14,263 bases of DNA from a virus: UHGV virus genome UHGV-0258057. The stretch is one strand, 5' to 3'. The notes beneath the pieces are model-generated. The model was not told where the DNA came from and made no database searches. It saw only the letters and a list, made by a program, of their open reading frames with translations. The stretch's first letter is position 1. The number at the start of each line of letters is the position of its first letter. The position numbers and the translations under genes are program-made. Positions 2,199 through 12,238 of the stretch are shown here, in pieces.

Positions 2199-4646
2199 TT
2201 AACCGTCATGCATCATGCTGGCACGGGCGCGCGCACGTTTATCCCGCTCGTATTTTTCGAGTGCATCCTGTAACTGGCGGTCGAGCTGTGTCCCCGGCGC
2301 AGTACCACCCGTCAGGCTGATGTGATATTCGTTTTTACTCTGGTCCACATAAGAGCGGCCAGCCGGTGCCGTAACCGGCTGATAAGCCTGATAGCCTGCA
2401 TAAGAGCTGGTCGCCGGAATATAACCACCGCTGCCATACGTGGTGGCTTGAGTTCTGGCGGCGGTCTGGTCAAGTGTGTCTGACTCTTTGTTGATAACAC
2501 CGAGTTTTTCCAGTACCCAGTCAATTCCGCTGCGCAGTTTGTTGAACGCATTAAGCGGCAGCATCAGCGCGTCAGCCAGTGCCTGCCCGAACATGACGCC
2601 AGTATCACGGCAACGGTTCAGGGTGTCCTGGGTGGCTTTGACCGGGGCAATCAGGTTTTTAAACCACTGCCACGCGGCCTGTAACTTTTCGCCCAGCCAG
2701 TCAAACACCGGCTTAAGTGGCGTGAACAGTTCCCCCACCGGCGCAAATGCCGCTTTCAGCCCTTCCATCACACCGCCAAAGAATGCGCTGACAGGCTCCC
2801 AGTATTTACGGATAAGCAACGCCCCGGCGACAATGGTGGCCACCACGGCCACAACCGGCCAGCTAATCGCCCCGATGGCGGTCATAACAGCACTGCCAAC
2901 CGTCGTGAAGATTGCCCCCATTGCGCCTGCTGCCGCGATAATGGCATTGATGCCGGTGATAACCGGCCAGGCTACAAGACCAATGGCACCGATGATGCCA
3001 GTAAGCGCCAGCGCGCCACCGACAATGAGGCCGATGGTTGACGCCAGTGATTTGTTTTTCTGGATCCAGCCGTCGAGTTTTAACACATACTTTGTGGCCG
3101 TCTGAGTGAGCTTACGCAGTGCGCCTTCGTGCTGGTCAAACAGGTCAGTCCCCACCGCCTCATAAGCGGACTGAAACTCCTTAAAGTCACCGCCGAGGTT
3201 GTCCTGCATGATATTTACCAGTTCTGCGGTCTTTCCGTCTGAGGCTTTAAACGCAGCGGTCAGTTTGTCCAGCTTTCCGGTTGACGCGGCAGTCATCAGC
3301 ACAGCGGCGGCTGAGCTGGCCTCCTCCCCGAAAATGGTTTTCATGTATTCGGCCTGCTGGGCAGTACCGAGCCGGTTTTTCTCAAAACTGGCCTGCATTT
3401 CTTTCAGAATGGTAAATACTGGTCGGGTGTTTCCCTTGCTGTCTGAGGTTTTCACACCAAGCTCTTTCAGTGCATCCCACGCTTTTCCCGTCGGTGCCTG
3501 CAGGCGGCTTAACACGGCACGGCTTCCCGTCCCCGCCATTGAGCCTGTGATTTTTGCATCATGCAGCGCCCCGACCATTGCGGCGGTTTCTTCAATGCTG
3601 ACACCGGCATTTTTTGCCACAGGTGCGGCATAGGTCAGCGCATCGCTCATGCCGTCAAAATCGGCGGCGGTTTTGTTCATCGTCATGGAGAGAACATCCC
3701 CGATATGAGCGACCTTATCGTTTGAAAGCTGAAAGGCGGATTTCATCCCCATCAGCAGGGCGGCGTTTTCTTCCATCGTGCGGCGGTTCGCCAGCGCCAT
3801 ATTCAGCGTGACCGGCGTTGCCGCCTGAATGGCATCAACATCCCCACCCGCTTTCGCGATGATTATCTGTGCACCGGCCGCATCATCCGCCGAGGCGGCG
3901 GTATTGTCGCCGAGCTGGCGCGCCTGTTTGCGTAGTGCGGTCATTTCGGCGGAGTCTTTTGCCACTCCGAGCACGGCCTGCAATTCTGAGTTTTTCTGCG
4001 CAAACTCATAACCGGGCATCAGCAACTTAACTCCGGCCATCGTTCCCGCCGCCGCAATCCCCACACCGGCAGCGCCCACTGAGGCCATATTTCCGGCCAG
4101 TTCCTTTCCGGCCTGATAACGCTGTTTTACTGCGTTAAGTTTTGCCTGTTGTGCACTGACACGCGCCAGTGCGTCACGCTGACGGTTAAGCTGTGCGGTG
4201 GTTTCACTGATACGGTTTTTCAGTCCCTGCTCATCATGTGCAAGATTGCGGGTATTAATTCCCACAGCGGCCAGTTCCCGCTGCTGGCGTTTAACGGAAT
4301 CCGTCAGGCGGTTATATTTCGCCTGTAAGTCCTCCGCCGCACGCTTTGCGGATTCCAGCACTTTCGCCTGAGCACGTGTCGGACGTTCGGTATTTTTAAA
4401 CTGTGTGGCAAGGGCTTCGGCCTCCTGCCGAGCCTTTTCAAGTGCATGACCAGTCACGGCGAGCTGTGCACTGGTCTTGCGGAATCCCTCAATACGGGAT
4501 GCCTGACCGTTCAGCTCGCGCAGTGATTTTTGTGTTTCCCGGATATCCCCCGACAGCGATTTGCTCGCTGTGCGGATGGATTTAAACGGGCGGGATGCCT
4601 GGTCAACAGCCCTGAGCAATACCTGTAATTTTACATTGTCACTCAT
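2199..4646 (-). CDS. T: Tail tape measure protein T, 815 aa
   Basis: An 815-aa ORF with coiled-coil-like Ala/Gln-rich N-terminal region and Gly/Ala-rich hydrophobic central segments typical of tape measure proteins; same length as P2 gpT. Confidence 0.9.
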   Translation of the reverse strand: MSDNVKLQVLLRAVDQASRPFKSIRTASKSLSGDIRETQKSLRELNGQASRIEGFRKTSAQLAVTGHALEKARQEAEALATQFKNTERPTRAQAKVLESAKRAAEDLQAKYNRLTDSVKRQQRELAAVGINTRNLAHDEQGLKNRISETTAQLNRQRDALARVSAQQAKLNAVKQRYQAGKELAGNMASVGAAGVGIAAAGTMAGVKLLMPGYEFAQKNSELQAVLGVAKDSAEMTALRKQARQLGDNTAASADDAAGAQIIIAKAGGDVDAIQAATPVTLNMALANRRTMEENAALLMGMKSAFQLSNDKVAHIGDVLSMTMNKTAADFDGMSDALTYAAPVAKNAGVSIEETAAMVGALHDAKITGSMAGTGSRAVLSRLQAPTGKAWDALKELGVKTSDSKGNTRPVFTILKEMQASFEKNRLGTAQQAEYMKTIFGEEASSAAAVLMTAASTGKLDKLTAAFKASDGKTAELVNIMQDNLGGDFKEFQSAYEAVGTDLFDQHEGALRKLTQTATKYVLKLDGWIQKNKSLASTIGLIVGGALALTGIIGAIGLVAWPVITGINAIIAAAGAMGAIFTTVGSAVMTAIGAISWPVVAVVATIVAGALLIRKYWEPVSAFFGGVMEGLKAAFAPVGELFTPLKPVFDWLGEKLQAAWQWFKNLIAPVKATQDTLNRCRDTGVMFGQALADALMLPLNAFNKLRSGIDWVLEKLGVINKESDTLDQTAARTQATTYGSGGYIPATSSYAGYQAYQPVTAPAGRSYVDQSKNEYHISLTGGTAPGTQLDRQLQDALEKYERDKRARARASMMHDG

Positions 4647-5066
4647 TCGTGTTTCCGCTTCGCCGGAGCGCCTTTTCGCGCCATGTGATGAGTTCGGTCA
4701 GGCTCATGGGATACAGTTCTGATGGCGGCCAGTGAAATATCACTGCCACATCCGCCATCAGGTCATCGACCGACAGATTTTTCGGAAACGTCACTGAACC
4801 GAGTTCGGCGACAAAAAACCGACCACCTTACCGGCCAGCGCCACAAGGTCAGGCAGTTCCAGCGCGGCGACTTCCTGCTCGGTCAGCATCGGTGCCGTCA
4901 TGCGCGGCAGCACCTTAATCAGTGCATCGACTTCGGAGTTCGCGACCGCTGCCAGACTGACACCGCGCAGCGTCCCGGCATTGGGTTTCATCAGCGTGAC
5001 CTGTTCGATGACCTGCTCACCACGCTTGACCGGATTGTCCAGGGTAATCACATTTTCTTTGTTCAT
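4639..5066 (-). CDS. E+E': Tail assembly chaperone E+E', produced by -1 programmed ribosomal frameshift (142 aa)
   Basis: The minus-strand slippery heptamer GGTTTTTTG (plus 4811-4820 acaaaaaacc) lies in codons 83-85 of E. The -1 frame is open from there to a TGA at 4641-4639, which overlaps the T start codon, and gives 84+58 = 142 aa, the same as P2 E+E'. Confidence 0.75.
4791..5066 (-). CDS. E: Tail assembly chaperone E, 91 aa
   Basis: A 91-aa ORF between FII and T ending ...GKVVGFLSPNSVQ; size and position match P2 gpE. Confidence 0.85.
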   Translation of the reverse strand: MNKENVITLDNPVKRGEQVIEQVTLMKPNAGTLRGVSLAAVANSEVDALIKVLPRMTAPMLTEQEVAALELPDLVALAGKVVGFLSPNSVQ

Positions 5067-5122: not shown

Positions 5123-5641
5123 TCACAGGCCGATATTGCGGCGGTGTTGCTCCAGCCGGTCGACGCCGTTCACCTTCTCAATCATGTTGATGGTGTCGAT
5201 TTCGACCAGCTCCTTACCGTCCATCGTCAGCCGGAAATAGGTGCAGACCACGGAGATTTTCGACTCAGTGTCTTCTCCCTGTTTACCCTCGCCGGTGTCG
5301 ATTTCTTTCTGACGTCCACGCATGACCACTTCGACGGCCACCGTTTCGCCGGTATCGTCACGCTGGTAAGAGCCTGCAAAACGAATCGGCACAGCATCCA
5401 CACCGGTTGCGGCGTAAAGCTCCCAGATAACCGAATCCGGGAAGCCCCCGAGCGACCACTCCATTGACAGCGCATCGTCATCAAGACCGAGGTCTACCGG
5501 TGCGCTGCCGTTCATCCCCGCACCGCGATAGTTTTCGAGCTTACGGGTCAGTTTTGGCAGCGTGACGGACTTTGCAACGCCCTGATAGCTGTAGCCGTTC
5601 AGAAAGACGTTCATTAACTTGAGTTTGCGCGGCATTGCCAT
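5123..5641 (-). CDS. FII: Tail tube protein FII, 172 aa
   Basis: A 172-aa ORF immediately downstream of the sheath gene; size and order match P2 gpFII. Confidence 0.88.
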   Translation of the reverse strand: MAMPRKLKLMNVFLNGYSYQGVAKSVTLPKLTRKLENYRGAGMNGSAPVDLGLDDDALSMEWSLGGFPDSVIWELYAATGVDAVPIRFAGSYQRDDTGETVAVEVVMRGRQKEIDTGEGKQGEDTESKISVVCTYFRLTMDGKELVEIDTINMIEKVNGVDRLEQHRRNIGL

Positions 5642-5653
5642 CGGTCAGGCTCC

Positions 5654-6844
5654 TTAATTGCTGTTAACCGAGGTGACCAGATTTGCCAGATATTTATCGG
5701 TAATACGCTGGCGCAGGGTCAGGTTTTCAAGAGGAGGCACCGGGGTATAGTCGTAGTCGATATACAGTTTTCCGGCCTTAAGGGTTTCCGCATCGTTGGA
5801 TTCTTCGCTGAACCAGCAGGTCGCATCCACGATATAGCCGTTTGTTTTCAGCTCACGGAATTTGGCATTGATGCCGTCAACGATGTCGCGAATCAGCGTT
5901 GCGGTGATGGGCTTGTCCACCGCCCACATGTGCGCCTCAGCCATCGTGTCGGCCAGCACCTGCGCGGTGCGGGTGTAGTTTTCAAAGAGGAACAGCGGAT
6001 CATCAGAGCAGGTACGGTTACCCCAGAAGCGGAAACCGTCGCGGCGAATCAGCGTTGTGACGCCTGACTCGTTAAGCAGGTCAGCATCGGTGCCGGACTC
6101 CTGCAAATCCCAGAATACAGATGCGCTGATGCCGGTAACACCGTTCACCCCGACATTGGACAGCGTTTTATGCCAGCCCTGCTCTTGGTCGATTTTAGCG
6201 CGCAGACCCAGCGCACGGGCGGTGGCATACGCGGTGGCGGTGGTGCTGCTGACCGTATCCCATGCGAGGAAATCCGGCCAGATGACCATCAGCTCACGCT
6301 GGCTGAAATTCTGGCGGTAGGCTTTCACCTCGGAAATGGTTTTGCAGCCCCATGCGCTGATATACCCGAAAGCGCGCAGCTTCTGACAGACTGATGCCAG
6401 TGCAACAGCAACCTCTTTGGTGTCCAGTCCCGGCACGCCGAGAATACGCGGTTTAACACCGGTTACCGACTCCGCCGCCAGCAGGGCTTTCAGTCCGGTG
6501 TACTGACCGTTTTCGTCGGTGGTGCCGATGATATTGGAAACGGTCTGCGCGAGTTTCGTTTCCTCGTCTTCGCCGGTGCCGTCTTCCACACGCACGACAA
6601 CGGTGACCGGTTTTGACTGGTCGGCGATAGCCTGCAACGATGCCGCCAGCGTGCCTTTTTTACCGGCCTTTGCAATCGCGCTCTGCACATTGGTAATCAG
6701 CACCGGTTTATTGAGGGGGAAGATTTCCGCATCCGCATCGCTGGCCGTGCAGACCATGCCGACAATGGCCGTGGATACAGTGGAAATGACACGGGTGCCG
6801 TCGTTAATCTCCAGCACCTGCACGCCGTGATGATAGTCACTCAT
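5654..6844 (-). CDS. FI: Contractile tail sheath protein FI, 396 aa
   Basis: A 396-aa ORF, first gene of the FI-FII-E-T-U-D operon; size and position match P2 gpFI. Confidence 0.9.
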   Translation of the reverse strand: MSDYHHGVQVLEINDGTRVISTVSTAIVGMVCTASDADAEIFPLNKPVLITNVQSAIAKAGKKGTLAASLQAIADQSKPVTVVVRVEDGTGEDEETKLAQTVSNIIGTTDENGQYTGLKALLAAESVTGVKPRILGVPGLDTKEVAVALASVCQKLRAFGYISAWGCKTISEVKAYRQNFSQRELMVIWPDFLAWDTVSSTTATAYATARALGLRAKIDQEQGWHKTLSNVGVNGVTGISASVFWDLQESGTDADLLNESGVTTLIRRDGFRFWGNRTCSDDPLFLFENYTRTAQVLADTMAEAHMWAVDKPITATLIRDIVDGINAKFRELKTNGYIVDATCWFSEESNDAETLKAGKLYIDYDYTPVPPLENLTLRQRITDKYLANLVTSVNSN

Positions 6845-6907
6845 CCGTTTAACTCCGTGGTTAATGGGTGCAACTATTTTCTGTTGGGCAGTGCATGAGA
6901 CGCTATT

Positions 6908-6922
6908 TGACCTGACTGGTCA
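6908..6922 (-). promoter_or_regulatory. Candidate dyad element of the Ogr-dependent late promoter upstream of FI
   Basis: The 15-nt palindrome TGACCtgactGGTCA is centred about 71 nt upstream of the FI start codon, in the position where P2 late promoters carry a dyad-symmetry activator site. I could not find an exact TGT-N12-ACA match. Confidence 0.25.
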
Positions 6923-6938
6923 GTGGATGAAACAACAG

Positions 6939-6971
6939 ATAAAGAAAAGGCGGGCAATCAGATTGCCTGCC
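6939..6971 (-). terminator. Rho-independent terminator closing the cargo operon upstream of the FI promoter
   Basis: A 10-bp stem ggcgggcaat/attgcctgcc (one G-U wobble) with a 3-nt loop at 6949-6971, followed on the minus strand by UUUUCUUUAUCU (plus 6939-6948). It lies about 150 nt downstream of the SIR2-like gene stop. Confidence 0.6.
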
Positions 6972-7123
6972 TTGATTTGTGCTCACTCATTTTCCGACTG
7001 ACAGTTTACATAGCCAAAACGCTATCAAATCTGACAGCCTGCTTTGAGCGAGGAACGGACTAAATGCTCATCTCAGCGGTCAAAGGATATTTTTCTTTGA
7101 CCGTTCTCTTTATAGAGAAAAGA

Positions 7124-8032
7124 TTATCTGTTAGTTTTATTCTGAATATCTTTGATTACATCGAGGTAATACTCTTTTTCCTTCCCTTTGAACACTAACC
7201 CGAAATTATGATTAATTATAACCCCAACACTTTTCAAAAGATCGATTTTTGGTTTGGAAGCAGCGTCATTATAATAATAACCAGGGATGTAATATGTCAC
7301 CTCATATTGCAAGCTTATTTTCTTTGCAATTCTAGTCCTTTCTCTAAATGTAAGTAACCACCAAAGATCAATTTCAACAAAATCCAAATTCAAGCCTAAG
7401 ATATATACATCCTTAGTAAAAAAATCATCGATCCAGCTATTACCAATATCATTTGCTTGCAACCGCTTTGTAAGCGGCTCGTTGAACGATTTATTGGAAT
7501 ACTGACTTCCGGTAGTTGTATACCCCCGCATGCTTTGCAAATAACCACTGTAATGCTCATAGCCAAGAATTATTGAGCTTGGGTTATTCACTGCTCCATG
7601 TATATGCCATATGTTTTTGTTTTTCACCTGATAATGCCTGAAAATATTGTATTTACTTTCTTTTATTACACCTTCATTTTTTAAATCATCAGGCTTGATG
7701 CTGTCGTCTAAACAATATTCAAAAGCTAAATCATAGTTTGTTGTTAAAATATTATTGCATTCTAATCCAATTATTCTTTGATGGATTTCATTTGGCTTTA
7801 TTGTGTTTATCTTTGATGCGATGGAATCTTTTATTTTATTTTCTGAAAATCCATTCGCTTGCTTATTTGAAATATTAAAATAAATCTCTTCATAGGCTAG
7901 TGGAAATGGTTTTTCATGCGTGTCAATTTTTATCCCATATGTTGCCCCTAGGTTATTTAAAACATCAAGCCAAGAATTTCCATTTGTAATATTATTTATG
8001 CCATTTCCAATAAGCAGTGAATAATCGCGCAT
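7124..8032 (-). CDS. Stand-alone SIR2-like (SIR2_2-type, predicted NAD+-hydrolase) protein, 302 aa; candidate defence effector
   Basis: Motifs in sirtuin-fold order: N-terminal glycine-rich LLIGNGINN, then ILTTNYDLAFE (TTNYD signature with the putative catalytic Asn), then WHIHGAVNNPSSIILGYEHY (HG motif with the following strand), then YILGLNLDFVEIDL. Strong RBS AGGGA 5 nt upstream; about 30% GC against about 55% in the flanking phage genes. Confidence 0.6.
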   Translation of the reverse strand: MRDYSLLIGNGINNITNGNSWLDVLNNLGATYGIKIDTHEKPFPLAYEEIYFNISNKQANGFSENKIKDSIASKINTIKPNEIHQRIIGLECNNILTTNYDLAFEYCLDDSIKPDDLKNEGVIKESKYNIFRHYQVKNKNIWHIHGAVNNPSSIILGYEHYSGYLQSMRGYTTTGSQYSNKSFNEPLTKRLQANDIGNSWIDDFFTKDVYILGLNLDFVEIDLWWLLTFRERTRIAKKISLQYEVTYYIPGYYYNDAASKPKIDLLKSVGVIINHNFGLVFKGKEKEYYLDVIKDIQNKTNR

Positions 8033-8262
8033 TTCTATCCCTTATGTTAGATACATTTTTTACACTATACTACTGATATTTATTCTAATACCAGTCATTG
8101 GCATGTTCGACACCGATAAGTTTGATCTTGCCTAGCAACTTATGTTTTCGAATATGCCCCCCCCATGAAAGTCTTAGACAACTATACCTATTAATATCCT
8201 ACAGAGTGCTCTTCGTAGTCAGAAAATGAGAACGAGATAACATCAGTTCATTGGTTTACTCC

Positions 8263-8499
8263 CTACGCAGTTTGTGAGTTAGCACCGTCCGCTTCTGGCA
8301 CGTAGGGGACCAACCAGCTGGTCCTCAGGTCCGATATGAGCGAGAAGCTAAAATTCGCAGTTGTTCCCAAAGTCGATGGAGGAATTTTTAACATTACAGT
8401 GTATTTATCAACGGGAAGCAGGTCACTCTCTATGGTTCTCGCATTATTTGTTAACAAAATAACATATTCTTTTGCTTCATCGATAGTATTGAATATCAT
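8263..8499 (-). CDS. Small hypothetical protein, 78 aa, middle gene of the cargo operon
   Basis: ORF with RBS GTGGGA 5 nt upstream of the ATG. The first ~58 codons are AT-rich like the neighbouring genes; the last ~20 codons read through a GC-rich hairpin element, so the true C-terminus is uncertain. Confidence 0.4.
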   Translation of the reverse strand: MIFNTIDEAKEYVILLTNNARTIESDLLPVDKYTVMLKIPPSTLGTTANFSFSLISDLRTSWLVPYVPEADGANSQTA

Positions 8500-8587
8500 A
8501 AGTTCCCACTTAACATCGATATCTGCGGTAACTGATTAACACAAAGAAATTCATCCAATAGCAGAGAATAACTTTGAGTTTTAGATT

Positions 8588-9430
8588 TTAAAAAACCTTC
8601 AGCCATAATGTTTCGAGCCTTGTGCCAATCACGCCTTTTCCAATGTTATCCAGCCCTCGAACCATTGCGTATAAGCCACCTAATATTTGAATCCCTTCCT
8701 TTACACCTAAAGACGAATAGTCAAAAGTTGGAAAGAGGACGTAATAAGACATAATTACCCCAATACAACACTCGAAAACTCCATAGGAAAGACGGAAATT
8801 TTCTCTGTACCAAAATAGTATGAGTCCTAAAACGGGTAAACCCATCATTGTCCCCCAAACTGTAATGGTAGATACCAGTACTTCCATATTGGAATAGACG
8901 ATGTTTGCGACTAGAGAAGCAAGCCCGCCGAGCACAAAACTGGCTTTTAGGTAACGCTTTTGAGATGAAACAGCTTTTTCTGCTTTCTCTTCTATTTCTT
9001 TATTTAGAAAATCGCCTTTGCTTTCATTTATAAACTCAATGCCAGTCATAGATGTAATATTCCGACTAGCAAGAAAATAAGACAAGGCACGATCATTGGT
9101 CACGACGCAAGGAACTTCTTCTCCTTGCCGTTCTGCGTAAGAAATAGCTATTCGAGCAATATCAAAGTCTGCCCCAGTCAAACGCTGAGCATTTCTATCG
9201 GATTGGAAGATGTCGTTTTTTATTTTTTCAGGCGCTTCAACTATGAGCACACCAGCGGGAATTGACGAGGCCACTAAATCAGTAATATCTGACCATTTGT
9301 TGCTTTTCCCTCTATATGAAAGCTCATGCATCACAGCTCTTGGGATAACTAGCTTCCGATTTCCAGCTCTAGACAATATCTCCGGATGCTGCAATAAAAC
9401 ATTAGTATCTATTATGTATCTACTTGGCAT
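8588..9430 (-). CDS. PIN-domain nuclease fused to a C-terminal ~3-TM membrane domain, 280 aa; candidate defence component
   Basis: The N-terminus YIIDTNVLL...KLVIPRAVMHELS...TNDRAL follows the PIN pattern (first-strand Asp, then Glu, then the C-terminal TND motif), resembling the YlaK/PhoH-like PIN. The C-terminal ~110 aa has three hydrophobic stretches (FVLGGLASLVANIVY..VLVSTITVWGTMMGLPVLGLILFWY; GVFECCIGVIMSYYVLFPTF; IQILGGLYAMVRGL). RBS AGGGA upstream. Confidence 0.55.
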   Translation of the reverse strand: MPSRYIIDTNVLLQHPEILSRAGNRKLVIPRAVMHELSYRGKSNKWSDITDLVASSIPAGVLIVEAPEKIKNDIFQSDRNAQRLTGADFDIARIAISYAERQGEEVPCVVTNDRALSYFLASRNITSMTGIEFINESKGDFLNKEIEEKAEKAVSSQKRYLKASFVLGGLASLVANIVYSNMEVLVSTITVWGTMMGLPVLGLILFWYRENFRLSYGVFECCIGVIMSYYVLFPTFDYSSLGVKEGIQILGGLYAMVRGLDNIGKGVIGTRLETLWLKVF

Positions 9431-9587
9431 AAGCTATCCCTGATACCTTAATTTATCAAATAAAACGGTATGTAAACATATAAAACATAACTTCACAACT
9501 CACTTATCACTGCAAGTTTCCCAACCAGGCAAGCCATGTGCTTAGATATCTGACCTAACGTTTCTAAATTGATGAATGTCCGCTATT

Positions 9588-9628
9588 GGCACAGAGCGGA
9601 CTGTCAGATTAGGCTTTACTCTGTGCCA
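9588..9628. repeat. 10-bp perfect inverted repeat with 21-nt loop, between the G stop and the cargo operon start
   Basis: tggcacagag (9588-9597) pairs with ctctgtgcca (9619-9628). There is no U-run on either side, so it is not a canonical intrinsic terminator; it may be a protein-binding site or the boundary of the cargo insertion. Confidence 0.4.
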
Positions 9629-9661
9629 TAGATATGTAAGCTCCCACCAGAGCTCATACAC

Positions 9662-10189
9662 TTATTGCGGCATTTCCGGCCATTCAGGATTTGCAGTATC
9701 CACACGACTGACAAGAACGCTGTAGCGTTCCCATGCCTCCAGTCGACTGCGCTCCTCATCTGTTGCCATATTCAGCCTGACAGCGCGCTCCAGCGGCAAA
9801 ATCACGGATTCGGCTTCGGAAAGCAAAGTTGCCTTTTGTGATTCTGCCAGTTGCTGCTGTTCGTCTGCCGTATAAATCCGCTTAATCACTGCACCATCCT
9901 TAAACATCCATTTACCTGAGTCATCAGCACGCCGGTTGGCAGTAATATCAGGAACCTCAACGACGCTAAAACCTTCAGGATTAAGCGTTGAAGCATCTCT
10001 GGTGATGGCGACAATAATATTATTTTCATCATAAACAATCTTTATTGTCTCTGGCTGAAAATTACTTACTTCCTCATACCAGTTTTTTCCGTCTTCGGAC
10101 CATAACCAGATAACATCAAAATTCTTTGTTAGCTGATATTGCTCTTTTGTTTTTGGATTACCTGACTTAATGTTCTTTAAATGCTGCAT
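9662..10189 (-). CDS. G: Tail fibre assembly protein G (Tfa chaperone), 175 aa
   Basis: A 175-aa ORF immediately downstream of tail fibre gene H; size and position match P2 gpG. Confidence 0.8.
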
Positions 10190-10192
10190 AAC

Positions 10193-12238
10193 TTATACCT
10201 GCGCAACGTTATACCATGTGCCATTGATGTATTTTTGTATTGGTCTGAATACTGCCGGATCATCGCCATCAACTTCACCGACAATACCAAGCCCCGTAAT
10301 TGCATGGCCTGATTTTTCATACATCACGCCTTTCTGCATGGTCTGCACAACACGTGTGCCAAGTCTGATATCTCTCACATAGCGGGAATCAAAGTTACCG
10401 TAATCCGAGGGATTAACACGCCCCGTAATATTTATGGTCTTATTACTTTGAATGCTTCCGGAGACAAAGCGCATAACATGGACGTTATTAGCATAAACAT
10501 CTAGATTACCATCGCCATTTTGTTTAAATCCGGTGTCGCTATCACCAAGAACAATAGAGTTCCCACCCAACGCGTTATTCGTGCCAAGTGCCAGCCCGCC
10601 ATCAATCCTGGCACCATTACCAACAGACACAACTCCTGTTCTTAAGTTGATACCGAATGGCCTTAATGGCCCGATATCCCCATTTTCACCCTCATTTTCT
10701 CGTGTAGGGATGATATACAGGTTTTCTTCAGAACGGCGAAAAATAGCACCAAAAGATGAATTAAATATCCTCAGTGCATTGACTGTAGATATTTTTACTT
10801 CACTGCTGAAAAGGGCTTTAACAAGAACATACAGAGCATCCCATTTAAGATGCATCAGGTCTTTTGTTGTGGTGCTCTGGCGACTTCTCCATTTGAAATA
10901 TTCATTGCCGTTGTCGCCTGTTTCAAACCACATATATGAATCAGTATCGCTGTCGGCATCATTTTTAAATCCAATCTTTGCCCAGTCAGTATTTCGAATC
11001 CAGGCAAGGATTGAGTCGTTTTCAAATGTAAGCCCACCGGACAAGGTATCGCCATTCTTTTGCACCGCGTTCCTGGCTCGGTTTTCCGTTTCCTGTAAAC
11101 CGAGATATTCGATAACGGCGGCAACGGTCGATTTCGCAAGAATATCTCGCCCGACTTTTGTCAGGATTGCCAGGCTGGCAACATCATTCCCCGTAAAATA
11201 CGGAAACCTGTCTGCCGCAGTAACAAGCCCCGCCAGCGCCGTCAAAGTGGCATCTTTCGGTTGCTTACCCGCAAGCGCATTAGTCATGGTGATAGCAAAA
11301 TTCGGGTCATTGCCCAGCGCCGCTGCCAGCTCGTTCAGCGTATTCAGTGCGTCAGGCGACGAGTCTACAAGGGCGGCAATCGCGGCCATAACGAAAGCCG
11401 TGTTTGCGATCTGAGTATTATTCGTTCCCTGTCGCGCAGTTGGCGTCGTTGGCGTTCCGGTCAGTGCAGGGCTGTTTAATGGCGCTTTTTGGTTCGTTTC
11501 ATCCATTACCGTCTTAACAGCTTTTGGTGTTGCGGCGAGCGTTTCAGACATGCTGTTGGTCGCACTACTTAGCTGGACAAGACCTTTTCGCGCTGTGGTA
11601 GCGTCCTGTGCGGTATATTTCCCGTTAGCAAGGTCATATGCGGCCTTAACCGCTTTCGGCGTTGCGGCCAGTGTTTCAGATATGCTGTTGGTCGCACTGC
11701 TTAACTGAGTAAAACCTTTTGCGGTCAGCGAGGCGTCAGGGTGACGTCGTGACTGTTCATGTTCTGCAATTTTGTCATCAACGTAATCCTGCGTTGCCAT
11801 CACCGTTGTGGTGTCAATGGTCAGCGCCACTGAGGCCACACTGCTGACGATGATGACCATGCGGCAGGTCTGCGAACGCCCTGAGCCTTCGGCAAGGGCA
11901 GGCTTATAACTTTCGGCCATGTTCGCCACGGCAATTAACGTTCCCGCATCATCGTACAGGCCAAGCTCACGCATCCAGAAACCGCCCACCTCCGGCGGAA
12001 TAACCAGCTCTGCGATAATATAATTACTGTTTCGTTTGTCCTGGCTGATTTTGTTCAGCGCATGTCGCCAGACTTCGTGGATAAGCCCGGTCTGTCCGGC
12101 ATCCGGGACAGGCAATTTACCACCGCCATCCCCGACGGCCATCGTGGTAATGTTGACCTTCCGCCCTCCCGGCGCGGTTGCCGCTGCCAGCTTTGCTGCA
12201 CCGGCAGTGGTGATAACGGTTCTGAATTTTGTGCTCAT
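10193..12238 (-). CDS. H: Tail fibre protein H, 681 aa
   Basis: Large ORF between I and G; contains a duplicated QLSSATNS(I/M)SETLAATPKAVK motif characteristic of P2 H/Stf-type fibres and a compositionally distinct C-terminal domain. Confidence 0.85.
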   Translation of the reverse strand: MSTKFRTVITTAGAAKLAAATAPGGRKVNITTMAVGDGGGKLPVPDAGQTGLIHEVWRHALNKISQDKRNSNYIIAELVIPPEVGGFWMRELGLYDDAGTLIAVANMAESYKPALAEGSGRSQTCRMVIIVSSVASVALTIDTTTVMATQDYVDDKIAEHEQSRRHPDASLTAKGFTQLSSATNSISETLAATPKAVKAAYDLANGKYTAQDATTARKGLVQLSSATNSMSETLAATPKAVKTVMDETNQKAPLNSPALTGTPTTPTARQGTNNTQIANTAFVMAAIAALVDSSPDALNTLNELAAALGNDPNFAITMTNALAGKQPKDATLTALAGLVTAADRFPYFTGNDVASLAILTKVGRDILAKSTVAAVIEYLGLQETENRARNAVQKNGDTLSGGLTFENDSILAWIRNTDWAKIGFKNDADSDTDSYMWFETGDNGNEYFKWRSRQSTTTKDLMHLKWDALYVLVKALFSSEVKISTVNALRIFNSSFGAIFRRSEENLYIIPTRENEGENGDIGPLRPFGINLRTGVVSVGNGARIDGGLALGTNNALGGNSIVLGDSDTGFKQNGDGNLDVYANNVHVMRFVSGSIQSNKTINITGRVNPSDYGNFDSRYVRDIRLGTRVVQTMQKGVMYEKSGHAITGLGIVGEVDGDDPAVFRPIQKYINGTWYNVAQV

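Follow-up and report, generated by a model that had tools for sequence, protein, structure and literature searches.

The variable Z/fun region of P2-like coliphages, which Nilsson, Karlsson and Haggard-Ljungquist are said to have described in 2004 as having left and right inverted repeats, is the natural point of reference for the locus described here. The 2004 study appeared in Mol Biol Evol 21:1, records of this region are available in GenBank (AJ512676-AJ512685), and the Z-region records annotate the borders of the cargo as 'left' and 'right inverted repeats'. Discrete, promoter-poor single-gene cassettes of an accessory or defence type, which are separated by short imperfect palindromes and occur in unrelated contexts, are found as the attC cassettes of integrons and as the pdif modules of Acinetobacter. 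In pdif modules, the flanking sites are present in inverted orientation. A further comparison is offered by the shufflon of R64, a system of Rci-type tyrosine recombinases, for which the sfx core was reported to be 5'-GTGCCAA-3' (PMC4176322, PMC11852207).

The DNA that we analysed is a stretch of 14,263 nucleotides from the virus genome UHGV-0258057, hereafter referred to as the window. All genes in the window that were judged to be real are located on the minus strand, and together they make up the late region of a prophage of the P2-like (Peduovirus) type. This region includes the baseplate J/I genes, the tube and tape-measure genes, the tail fibre gene H (10193-12238, minus strand), the tail-fibre-assembly gene G (9662-10189, minus strand; Pfam Caudo_TAP) and the sheath gene FI (5654-6844, minus strand). 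The interval between G and FI is occupied by a 2.5-kb block with a GC content of 30-45%, as compared to approximately 56% in its surroundings. On both sides of this block, the sequence shows 88-94% identity to P2, WPhi, L-413C and the 'P2-EC' Z-region isolates and records, and the cargo is positioned at the known variable Z/fun site between the tail-fibre-assembly gene G and the sheath gene FI. The flanks alone were matched in 959 of 5426 complete E. coli genomes, with a different cargo in each, and the exact cargo of the window was present in just one complete E. coli genome, that of ZH177. In ZH177, PGAP calls the PIN and SIR2 genes and no gene between them. The cargo encodes three items, all on the minus strand. 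These are a 280-aa protein with a PIN_4 domain and a C-terminal transmembrane part (PIN-TM; 8588-9430; Pfam PIN_4 E = 3.3e-11) in the first cassette, an ATG-started ORF of 78 codons (8263-8499), which is a mosaic relic frame and most likely a pseudogene remnant, and a 302-aa SIR2_2/AbiH-like protein (7124-8032; Pfam SIR2_2 E = 2.8e-10, AbiH E = 5.4e-6; PADLOC ThsA-type SIR2, E = 1e-10) in the second cassette.

The borders of the cargo are marked by two 24-nt inverted-repeat sites on the minus strand. An L-type site, GTCCGCT-CTGTGCCAAT-AGCGGAC, is located on the side of gene G (9578-9601), and an R-type site, GTCCGTT-CCTCGCTCAA-AGCAGGC, on the side of gene FI (7037-7060). These outer sites match in position the inner ends of the repeats that are annotated in record AJ512683 as the left and right inverted repeat, respectively, and they lie within a 33-nt inverted repeat (7028-7060 and 9578-9610) that is 76% complementary. 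Moreover, homology to related loci breaks off at the repeat sites, with breakpoints at 9597/9601, 8337, 8287/8312 and 7040/7046. The locus thus shares with the P2 Z/fun region its position between G and FI, the similar flanks, the low GC content of the cargo and the matching outer borders, but it differs in containing two tandem cassettes. This arrangement creates a third, internal junction that is crossed by the ORF. Read in gene orientation, the junction consists of an R site (8352-8329), an 18-nt linker (8328-8311) and an L site (8310-8287), and its 66 bp correspond to codons 50-71 of the ORF. The same layout of R site, 18-nt linker and L site was observed at positions 5486-5551 of locus L003, where 13 of the 18 bases of the linker (5510-5527) are identical, and in at least 12 viral contigs. 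Within the cargo region, the pattern GTCYSYT-N10-AGCRGRC was found at exactly three places, namely 7037-7060, 8287-8310 and 9578-9601. This cannot be attributed to chance, because the window contains 6 strand-matches to the pattern where 0.13 are expected, and none of 200 shuffled sequences contained 6 or more. One further match with a single mismatch, GTCCCCACCGCCTCATAAGCGGAC (3148-3171), is located within the tape-measure gene and is probably due to chance.

With respect to the core sequences, the sites resemble those of the R64 shufflon. Like the sfx sites, the sites in the window lack symmetry, one of the arms beside the 7-bp core being different from context to context, and the core itself matches, as it reads GTGCCAA in the site at 9578-9601 and GTGCCAG in the site at 8287-8310. 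However, the conserved arm is AGCGGAC rather than TCCGGTACGTGG, and the sites bound exchangeable cargo rather than invertible pilV segments. Assignment to the shufflon sfx sites was rejected, as the right arm TCCGGTNNGTGG is absent and the window contains no Rci-like gene. The similarity to sfx is a resemblance only. The likeness to attC cassettes and pdif modules concerns the overall organisation described above, but the sites show no similarity to dif/XerCD sites and the crossover appears to take place in the central core and not at a G|TT point. Membership of the integron attC sites was likewise rejected, since the R''/R' boxes (RYYYAAC ... GTTRRRY) are absent and no integron integrase is encoded in the window.

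In an earlier note made from the sequence alone, the small ORF was regarded as a middle gene and compared to the small proteins between effectors in defence operons. This framing is not supported, because the flanking PIN-TM and SIR2-like genes each occur without the other, and in each case the homology ends at the junction sites. The loci L003-L005 and L161-L168 contain the PIN-TM gene without the SIR2 gene. They share positions 9597-8287 of the window at 99.3% identity, diverge right after ...GTGCCA(GA/AG)AGCGGAC, and carry a frame of the type found in protein cluster P0001, with the tail RADIIDGICRK. Conversely, locus L160, a lambdoid prophage, contains neither the PIN-TM gene nor the ORF, but shares positions 8312-7040 of the window at 92% identity. 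Its SIR2/AbiH-like cassette (3216-4493) is located downstream of the tail-tip J gene and has its own L and R sites, and the homology to the window begins directly past its own site, GTCTGCT-TTGTTCCAAG-AGCGGAC. In locus L026 the homology ends at position 8337, inside the loop of the decayed R site, after which L026 enters a P2-like right flank. Both cassettes together, with the same bounding sites (9601-7046), were found in a non-phage chromosomal setting in locus L008.

Homologues of PIN-TM fall into 109 clusters with identities down to 32%, and neither PADLOC nor NCBIfam contains a model matching it. This protein looks like the product of a stand-alone mobile gene and is a candidate single-gene defence effector. 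The multi-transmembrane PIN-TM protein is conserved from Escherichia to Chlorobaculum, Arcobacteraceae and Dechloromonas, and it is always about 280 aa long. In L161-L168, which derive from E. coli and Shigella assemblies, a serine invertase of the Pin/Gin type and an invertible tail-fibre segment immediately precede the PIN-TM cassette, and the segment is present in opposite orientations in L165 and L166. This setting represents a second prophage hotspot with the same border sites. Two observations concern the SIR2 gene. The untranslated leader of its cassette contains a run of eight C residues on the plus strand (8157-8164; G8 in gene orientation), which is G5 followed by TAC in the L160 copy and could be a slippage-prone or sequencing-sensitive spot. 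In a metagenome copy of the same cargo (L013, 2225-3128), the SIR2 gene was called as two pieces of 79 aa and 241 aa, which suggests a frameshift or an assembly error.

We subsequently consider the ORF itself. The 78-aa reading frame and its break in composition, which had been pointed out in the earlier note, are both real: the frame starts with ATG, and its GC content rises from 0.36 in codons 1-57 (8499-8329) to 0.59 in codons 58-78 plus the stop codon (8328-8263). The RBS that had been rated as good is present, but its strength is moderate; the Shine-Dalgarno-like motif TAAGTGGGAAC ends 5 nt upstream of the ATG and is carried as an inherited element by the 88-nt spacer (8500-8587, minus strand) that extends from the PIN-TM stop codon to the start of the ORF. 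Six segments can be distinguished along the minus strand. Codons 1-25 (MIFNTIDEAKEYVILLTNNARTIES; 8425-8499) represent the kept N-terminus and start codon of a conserved family of hypothetical proteins of about 295 aa, and codons 26-49 (8353-8424) correspond to the former 3'UTR of a 295-aa gene. These are followed by codons 50-57 (8329-8352), a decayed R-type site, TTTAGCT-TCTCGCTCAT-ATCGGAC; codons 58-63 (8311-8328), the 18-nt linker CTGAGGACCAGCTGGTTG that joins this site to the L site; codons 64-71 (8287-8310), the L-type repeat GTCCCCT-ACGTGCCAGA-AGCGGAC that delimits the SIR2 cassette on its 5' side; and codons 72-78 with the stop codon (8263-8286), the initial 24 nt of the SIR2 cassette leader. 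Segment by segment, the GC content of the ORF amounts to 0.28, 0.40, 0.46, 0.61, 0.67 and 0.50. The length of the ORF cannot be taken as evidence of a gene, because 8% of the shuffled sequences with the composition of codons 26-78 contain no in-frame stop codon, and because an antisense ORF of 77 aa is located nearby (9210-9443). An ORF of 67 aa on the plus strand (8336-8539) was dismissed, as it showed just a sub-threshold chance match to Pfam.

The origin of the ORF became apparent from loci in which the same start region opens a much longer reading frame. In L027 and L028, the PIN-TM proteins of which are 86% identical to that of the window, and in L032 (Pectobacterium polaris), this region opens an ORF of 295-301 aa. 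The ORF of L027/L028 encodes 301 aa and begins with MFSGEV-MKFDTIDEAKEYVVLLTNRARTIE..., and L032 contains a pair consisting of the PIN-TM gene and a 295-aa gene, as is the case in L027. The spacer in front of the intact gene measures 88 nt in L027 and 82 nt in L032. In the alignment with L027/L028, positions 9580-8428 of the window match up to codon 24, after which about 890 bp have no counterpart in the window. The match then resumes, with positions 8422-8333 of the window aligning to positions 5252-5339 of L027, beginning 80 nt past the stop codon of its long ORF. In L032, the sequence GTGACCTGCTCC was found 79 nt past the stop codon of the 295-aa gene. This match to the 3'UTR of L032 places the junction at ...ACCATAGAGAGT|GACCTGC... 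and shows that 891 bp were deleted. The deletion junction, AGT|GAC, is located at 8425/8424 and displays a GT microhomology. At the position of codon 33 of the window, L027 has an in-frame TAA. The closest diverged copy, L026 (P. carotovorum; 95.6% DNA identity), also carries the deletion, but its ATG has changed to ATA and a TAA lies in frame immediately upstream, which leaves it without a start codon.

The proteins of about 295 aa form a family of 120 clusters, with identities down to 39%, that is present in Pectobacterium, Serratia, Proteus, Shewanella, Vibrio, Aeromonas, Halomonas and other hosts, and that is also found without PIN-TM. Searches with the ~295-aa, SIR2 and PIN-TM proteins yielded no NCBIfam matches. 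The structural model of the ~295-aa protein is all-helical and confident (pLDDT 84), and invariant residues of the family include E83-W84-R85, R182-N183...H188-N189 and W217-S219-G221. Aligned to the family, residues 1-25 of the ORF correspond to the N-terminal consensus MxFNTIDEAKEYVVxxTNKAxTIE, and tblastn revealed 81% identity to the L027 protein over 26 aa. No alignment with the family was obtained for the residues after position 25. The comparison with homologues that had been proposed to find the end of conservation therefore places it at residue 25, and the view that some 58 codons are protein-like has to be narrowed: these codons do have a low GC content, but descent from coding sequence applies to codons 1-25 alone. 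The N-terminal segment of the family is thus present in the ORF, and the helical body with the invariant residues has been lost through the 891-bp deletion. By its sequence, the ORF is to be classed as a fragment of this family (P0113/P0114 type) and not as a member. Downstream of the 295-aa gene in the Shewanella loci L033-L035 (approximately 4889-4960), a long imperfect palindrome, GCCAGCACGGGGACAAAGTT...AACTTTGCCCGTGTGACGGGCGTTAT, was noticed, which is a candidate integron attC site.

Altogether, the 78-codon ORF is very probably the stump of a deleted gene for a protein of about 295 aa, the frame of which runs by chance through non-coding DNA, the junction and the next cassette. The ancestral cassette contained the PIN-TM gene, followed after 82-88 nt by the ~295-aa gene of the widespread all-helical family. 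As the three-way alignment shows, the Escherichia/Shigella lineage then underwent an 891-bp deletion, through which everything from codon 26 to codon 295 was lost together with the stop codon and some 79 nt of the 3'UTR. The surviving start codon and RBS thereby came to open a frame that meets no stop for 53 further codons and that crosses the former 3'UTR, the 66-bp R-linker-L junction and the initial 24 nt of the adjacent SIR2 cassette. The GC-rich 'hairpin element' is this inter-cassette junction, with border sites of the P2 Z/fun inverted-repeat type. Whole cassettes are presumably swapped between prophages and chromosomes through recombination that takes place in the 6-7-bp cores of the sites. 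The 78-aa peptide may still be translated, although presumably without a selected function. The suggestion of a recent fusion or insertion has in this respect been borne out, in the form of an internal deletion combined with read-through over the border of two mobile cassettes. As in other truncated gene remnants with a fortuitous ORF, the start codon, the RBS and 25 codons of a real gene have been kept, an internal deletion has occurred, and the frame continues to the first chance stop codon. In contrast to such remnants, the read-through here also crosses a mobile-cassette boundary, so that the C-terminal residues differ with the genomic context.

Several features count against a relic, namely the open frame in the Escherichia copies, the usable RBS, the predictions of gene callers and a 3:1 excess of synonymous changes relative to L161, the latter being based on tiny counts. 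These features would be accounted for if the 78-aa product were a genuine small protein that acts with PIN-TM and/or SIR2 as an antitoxin, regulator or trigger, as the earlier note had proposed, or a newly born micro-protein. Indeed, the frame is uninterrupted in each of the three Escherichia variants examined, those with a different 3' tail among them, although these are nearly identical copies; the RBS has been kept; the ORF is always found 88 nt downstream of PIN-TM in the Escherichia copies, whichever tail they have; and automatic gene finders have called it in many assemblies, 66 blocks of the assembly collection being represented in the index. Nevertheless, we consider it unlikely that such a protein exists. 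When 5.8 billion protein clusters were searched with a word index, only one other cluster was obtained, P0001, which is 97% identical but has a different C-terminal tail, and an exhaustive phmmer search of 1.84 billion representatives returned P0001 and two Ig-repeat surface proteins (P0111 and P0112), which are spurious matches with a pairwise BLASTP E-value of 2.9. For the 78-aa protein as such, the absence of homologues named beforehand as speaking against a function was thus what these two very large searches revealed. No Pfam or PADLOC family matches the ORF, and no ORF-like sequence was found, also by tblastn, downstream of PIN-TM in 10 distant genomes, in L030 or in several metagenomic loci, where the neighbouring genes are unrelated. 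Of what would be expected from a small accessory defence protein, neither homologues in diverged copies of the system nor a stable linkage to both effector genes nor, in the closest diverged relatives (L026 and L027), a preserved start codon and open frame was found. The start codon is lost in L026, and in L027, which has kept the parent gene, codons 26-49 correspond to 3'UTR with an in-frame stop. The C-terminal 8-11 residues are set by the cassette that follows (EADGANSQTA versus RADIIDGICRK). Nei-Gojobori estimates for codons 1-49 gave 5.5 non-synonymous and 1.5 synonymous changes relative to L026 (ratio 1.03), and 1 non-synonymous and 3 synonymous changes relative to L161 (ratio 0.09), both with very small counts and the latter with too few to rely on; the dN/dS of PIN-TM in the comparison was 0.26-0.48. 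It should be noted that the copies that keep the ORF are all at least 97% identical and therefore provide little information on selection in either direction. The AF2 single-sequence model of the 78-aa product had a pLDDT of 42, which is weak evidence by itself, and PGAP left the ORF uncalled. The antitoxin, regulator or trigger role thus finds no support, and it is reasonable to assume that a functional product, if any, would be shorter than 78 aa.

A second alternative is a reversed polarity, in which the small ORF came first and an insertion of about 890 bp into it gave rise to the ~295-aa genes found in L027 and L032. In principle, a deletion and an insertion result in identical pairwise alignments. 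However, the small ORF is restricted to one near-clonal sequence type, and an insertion would have had to bring an uninterrupted in-frame extension of 270 codons. The long gene is to be regarded as ancestral, and the 78-codon frame as its stump, because the ~295-aa family is widespread, has a conserved N-terminus, occurs without PIN-TM and yields a confident model; a reversed order of events is very unlikely. The remaining alternative concerns the GC-rich part of the ORF, which contains the palindrome GGACCAgctgGTTGGTCC and the 24-nt hairpin-type site, and which might mainly represent an RNA-level signal, such as a terminator, mRNA stabiliser or attenuator, rather than a recombination border. 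This part is palindromic and located between two genes, and the palindromes that border the P2 Z region might double as transcript-end structures. Yet, its single-strand folding was no better than that of shuffled sequences (z = -0.12 for RNA and z = -0.86 for DNA), and the hairpin element described in the earlier note is consequently present as a site and a palindrome, but not as an unusually stable fold. A retron-like or structured RNA was rejected on account of this folding energy. No intrinsic terminator was detected in a scan of 8263-8352, where the stem is followed by GGTGCTAACTC and not by a T-run, and there were no matches to Rfam (at permissive E-values) or ARAGORN in 6800-9700 that would point to a non-coding RNA or tRNA. 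Moreover, the breakpoints of four independent comparisons fall within the two 24-nt sites of this element, and the same sites bound cargo in many contigs. A primary role as RNA signal is therefore quite improbable, and a secondary one is possible. The stump of a ~295-aa gene read through a cassette border accordingly remains the preferred explanation for the ORF.

The border sites are members of a 24-bp site family, GTCYGYT-N10-AGCRGAC, with 7-bp arms and a 10-nt spacer, that was observed in loci L039-L158 in addition to the window. A scan of IMG/VR for CTNNGTGCCANNAGCGGAC identified at least 120 contigs with L sites and at least 83 different left flanks. Variable cargo is enclosed by these sites in at least 120 IMG/VR contigs, the conserved surroundings of which, from phages or chromosomes, are of at least five different kinds. 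Two heterospecific core types can be distinguished, GTGCCA for L and TCGCTC for R. In contigs that share their left context, the left arm and 'GTGCCA' are constant; the two bases that follow, the AGCGGAC-proximal side and all sequence downstream vary with the cargo. The R sites behave as the mirror image of the L sites, with the break within 'TCGCTC'. A constant arm and core that are joined to varying cargo imply that the crossover probably occurs in the 6-7-bp core between the 7-bp inverted arms, as would be expected for a site-specific recombinase. As the cores of L and R differ, we infer that the replacement of a cassette would involve an L x L event paired with an R x R event, and that L x R recombination would not give rise to inversions or deletions. 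No recombinase was consistently found near the sites: a 200-aa tyrosine recombinase encoded in L003 lies near only 1 of the at least 120 site-bearing viral contigs listed. In about 19 viral contigs (among L169-L199), the P2-type flank motifs TAATCTGACA...TGTCAGATT are just 24-25 nt apart (GTCCCCCGTTTTAAATTACCGTGTC). These contigs, which have a short palindrome but lack the GTGCCA core, may represent unoccupied or alternative sites in other P2-like phages.

The site sequences had no match in the literature that was searched, and the same units occur in P2-like, lambdoid and invertase-associated prophages as well as in chromosomes. We tentatively consider that the sites could belong to an uncharacterised general cassette-exchange platform, in which units with L and R sites are joined through 66-bp tandem junctions; this would imply a dedicated trans-acting recombinase, possibly of a shufflon-like type, but we hold this broader proposal to be somewhat less probable than its negation. 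In a minor variant of the proposal, the junction-spanning 78-aa peptide may be a newly born functional micro-protein.

With regard to the locus itself, the ORF is most likely an ordinary relic and not a component of a defence operon, and it should not be counted as the third part of a 'PIN-TM / small protein / SIR2' defence system. The locus rather consists of two independent single-gene cassettes and debris, which alters the design of cloning and testing, as each cassette is to be taken alone and with its own borders. More generally, short ORFs that extend across the borders of mobile cassettes can mimic the 'middle genes' of operons in defence islands. Of greater interest are the border sites, a by-product of this analysis. 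They mark the exact limits of cassettes in prophage hotspots and could serve for an automatic delimitation of cargo. If the sites indeed form a general exchange platform, the locus-specific observation of Nilsson et al. (2004) would become a general mechanism by which the defence genes of prophages are shuffled.
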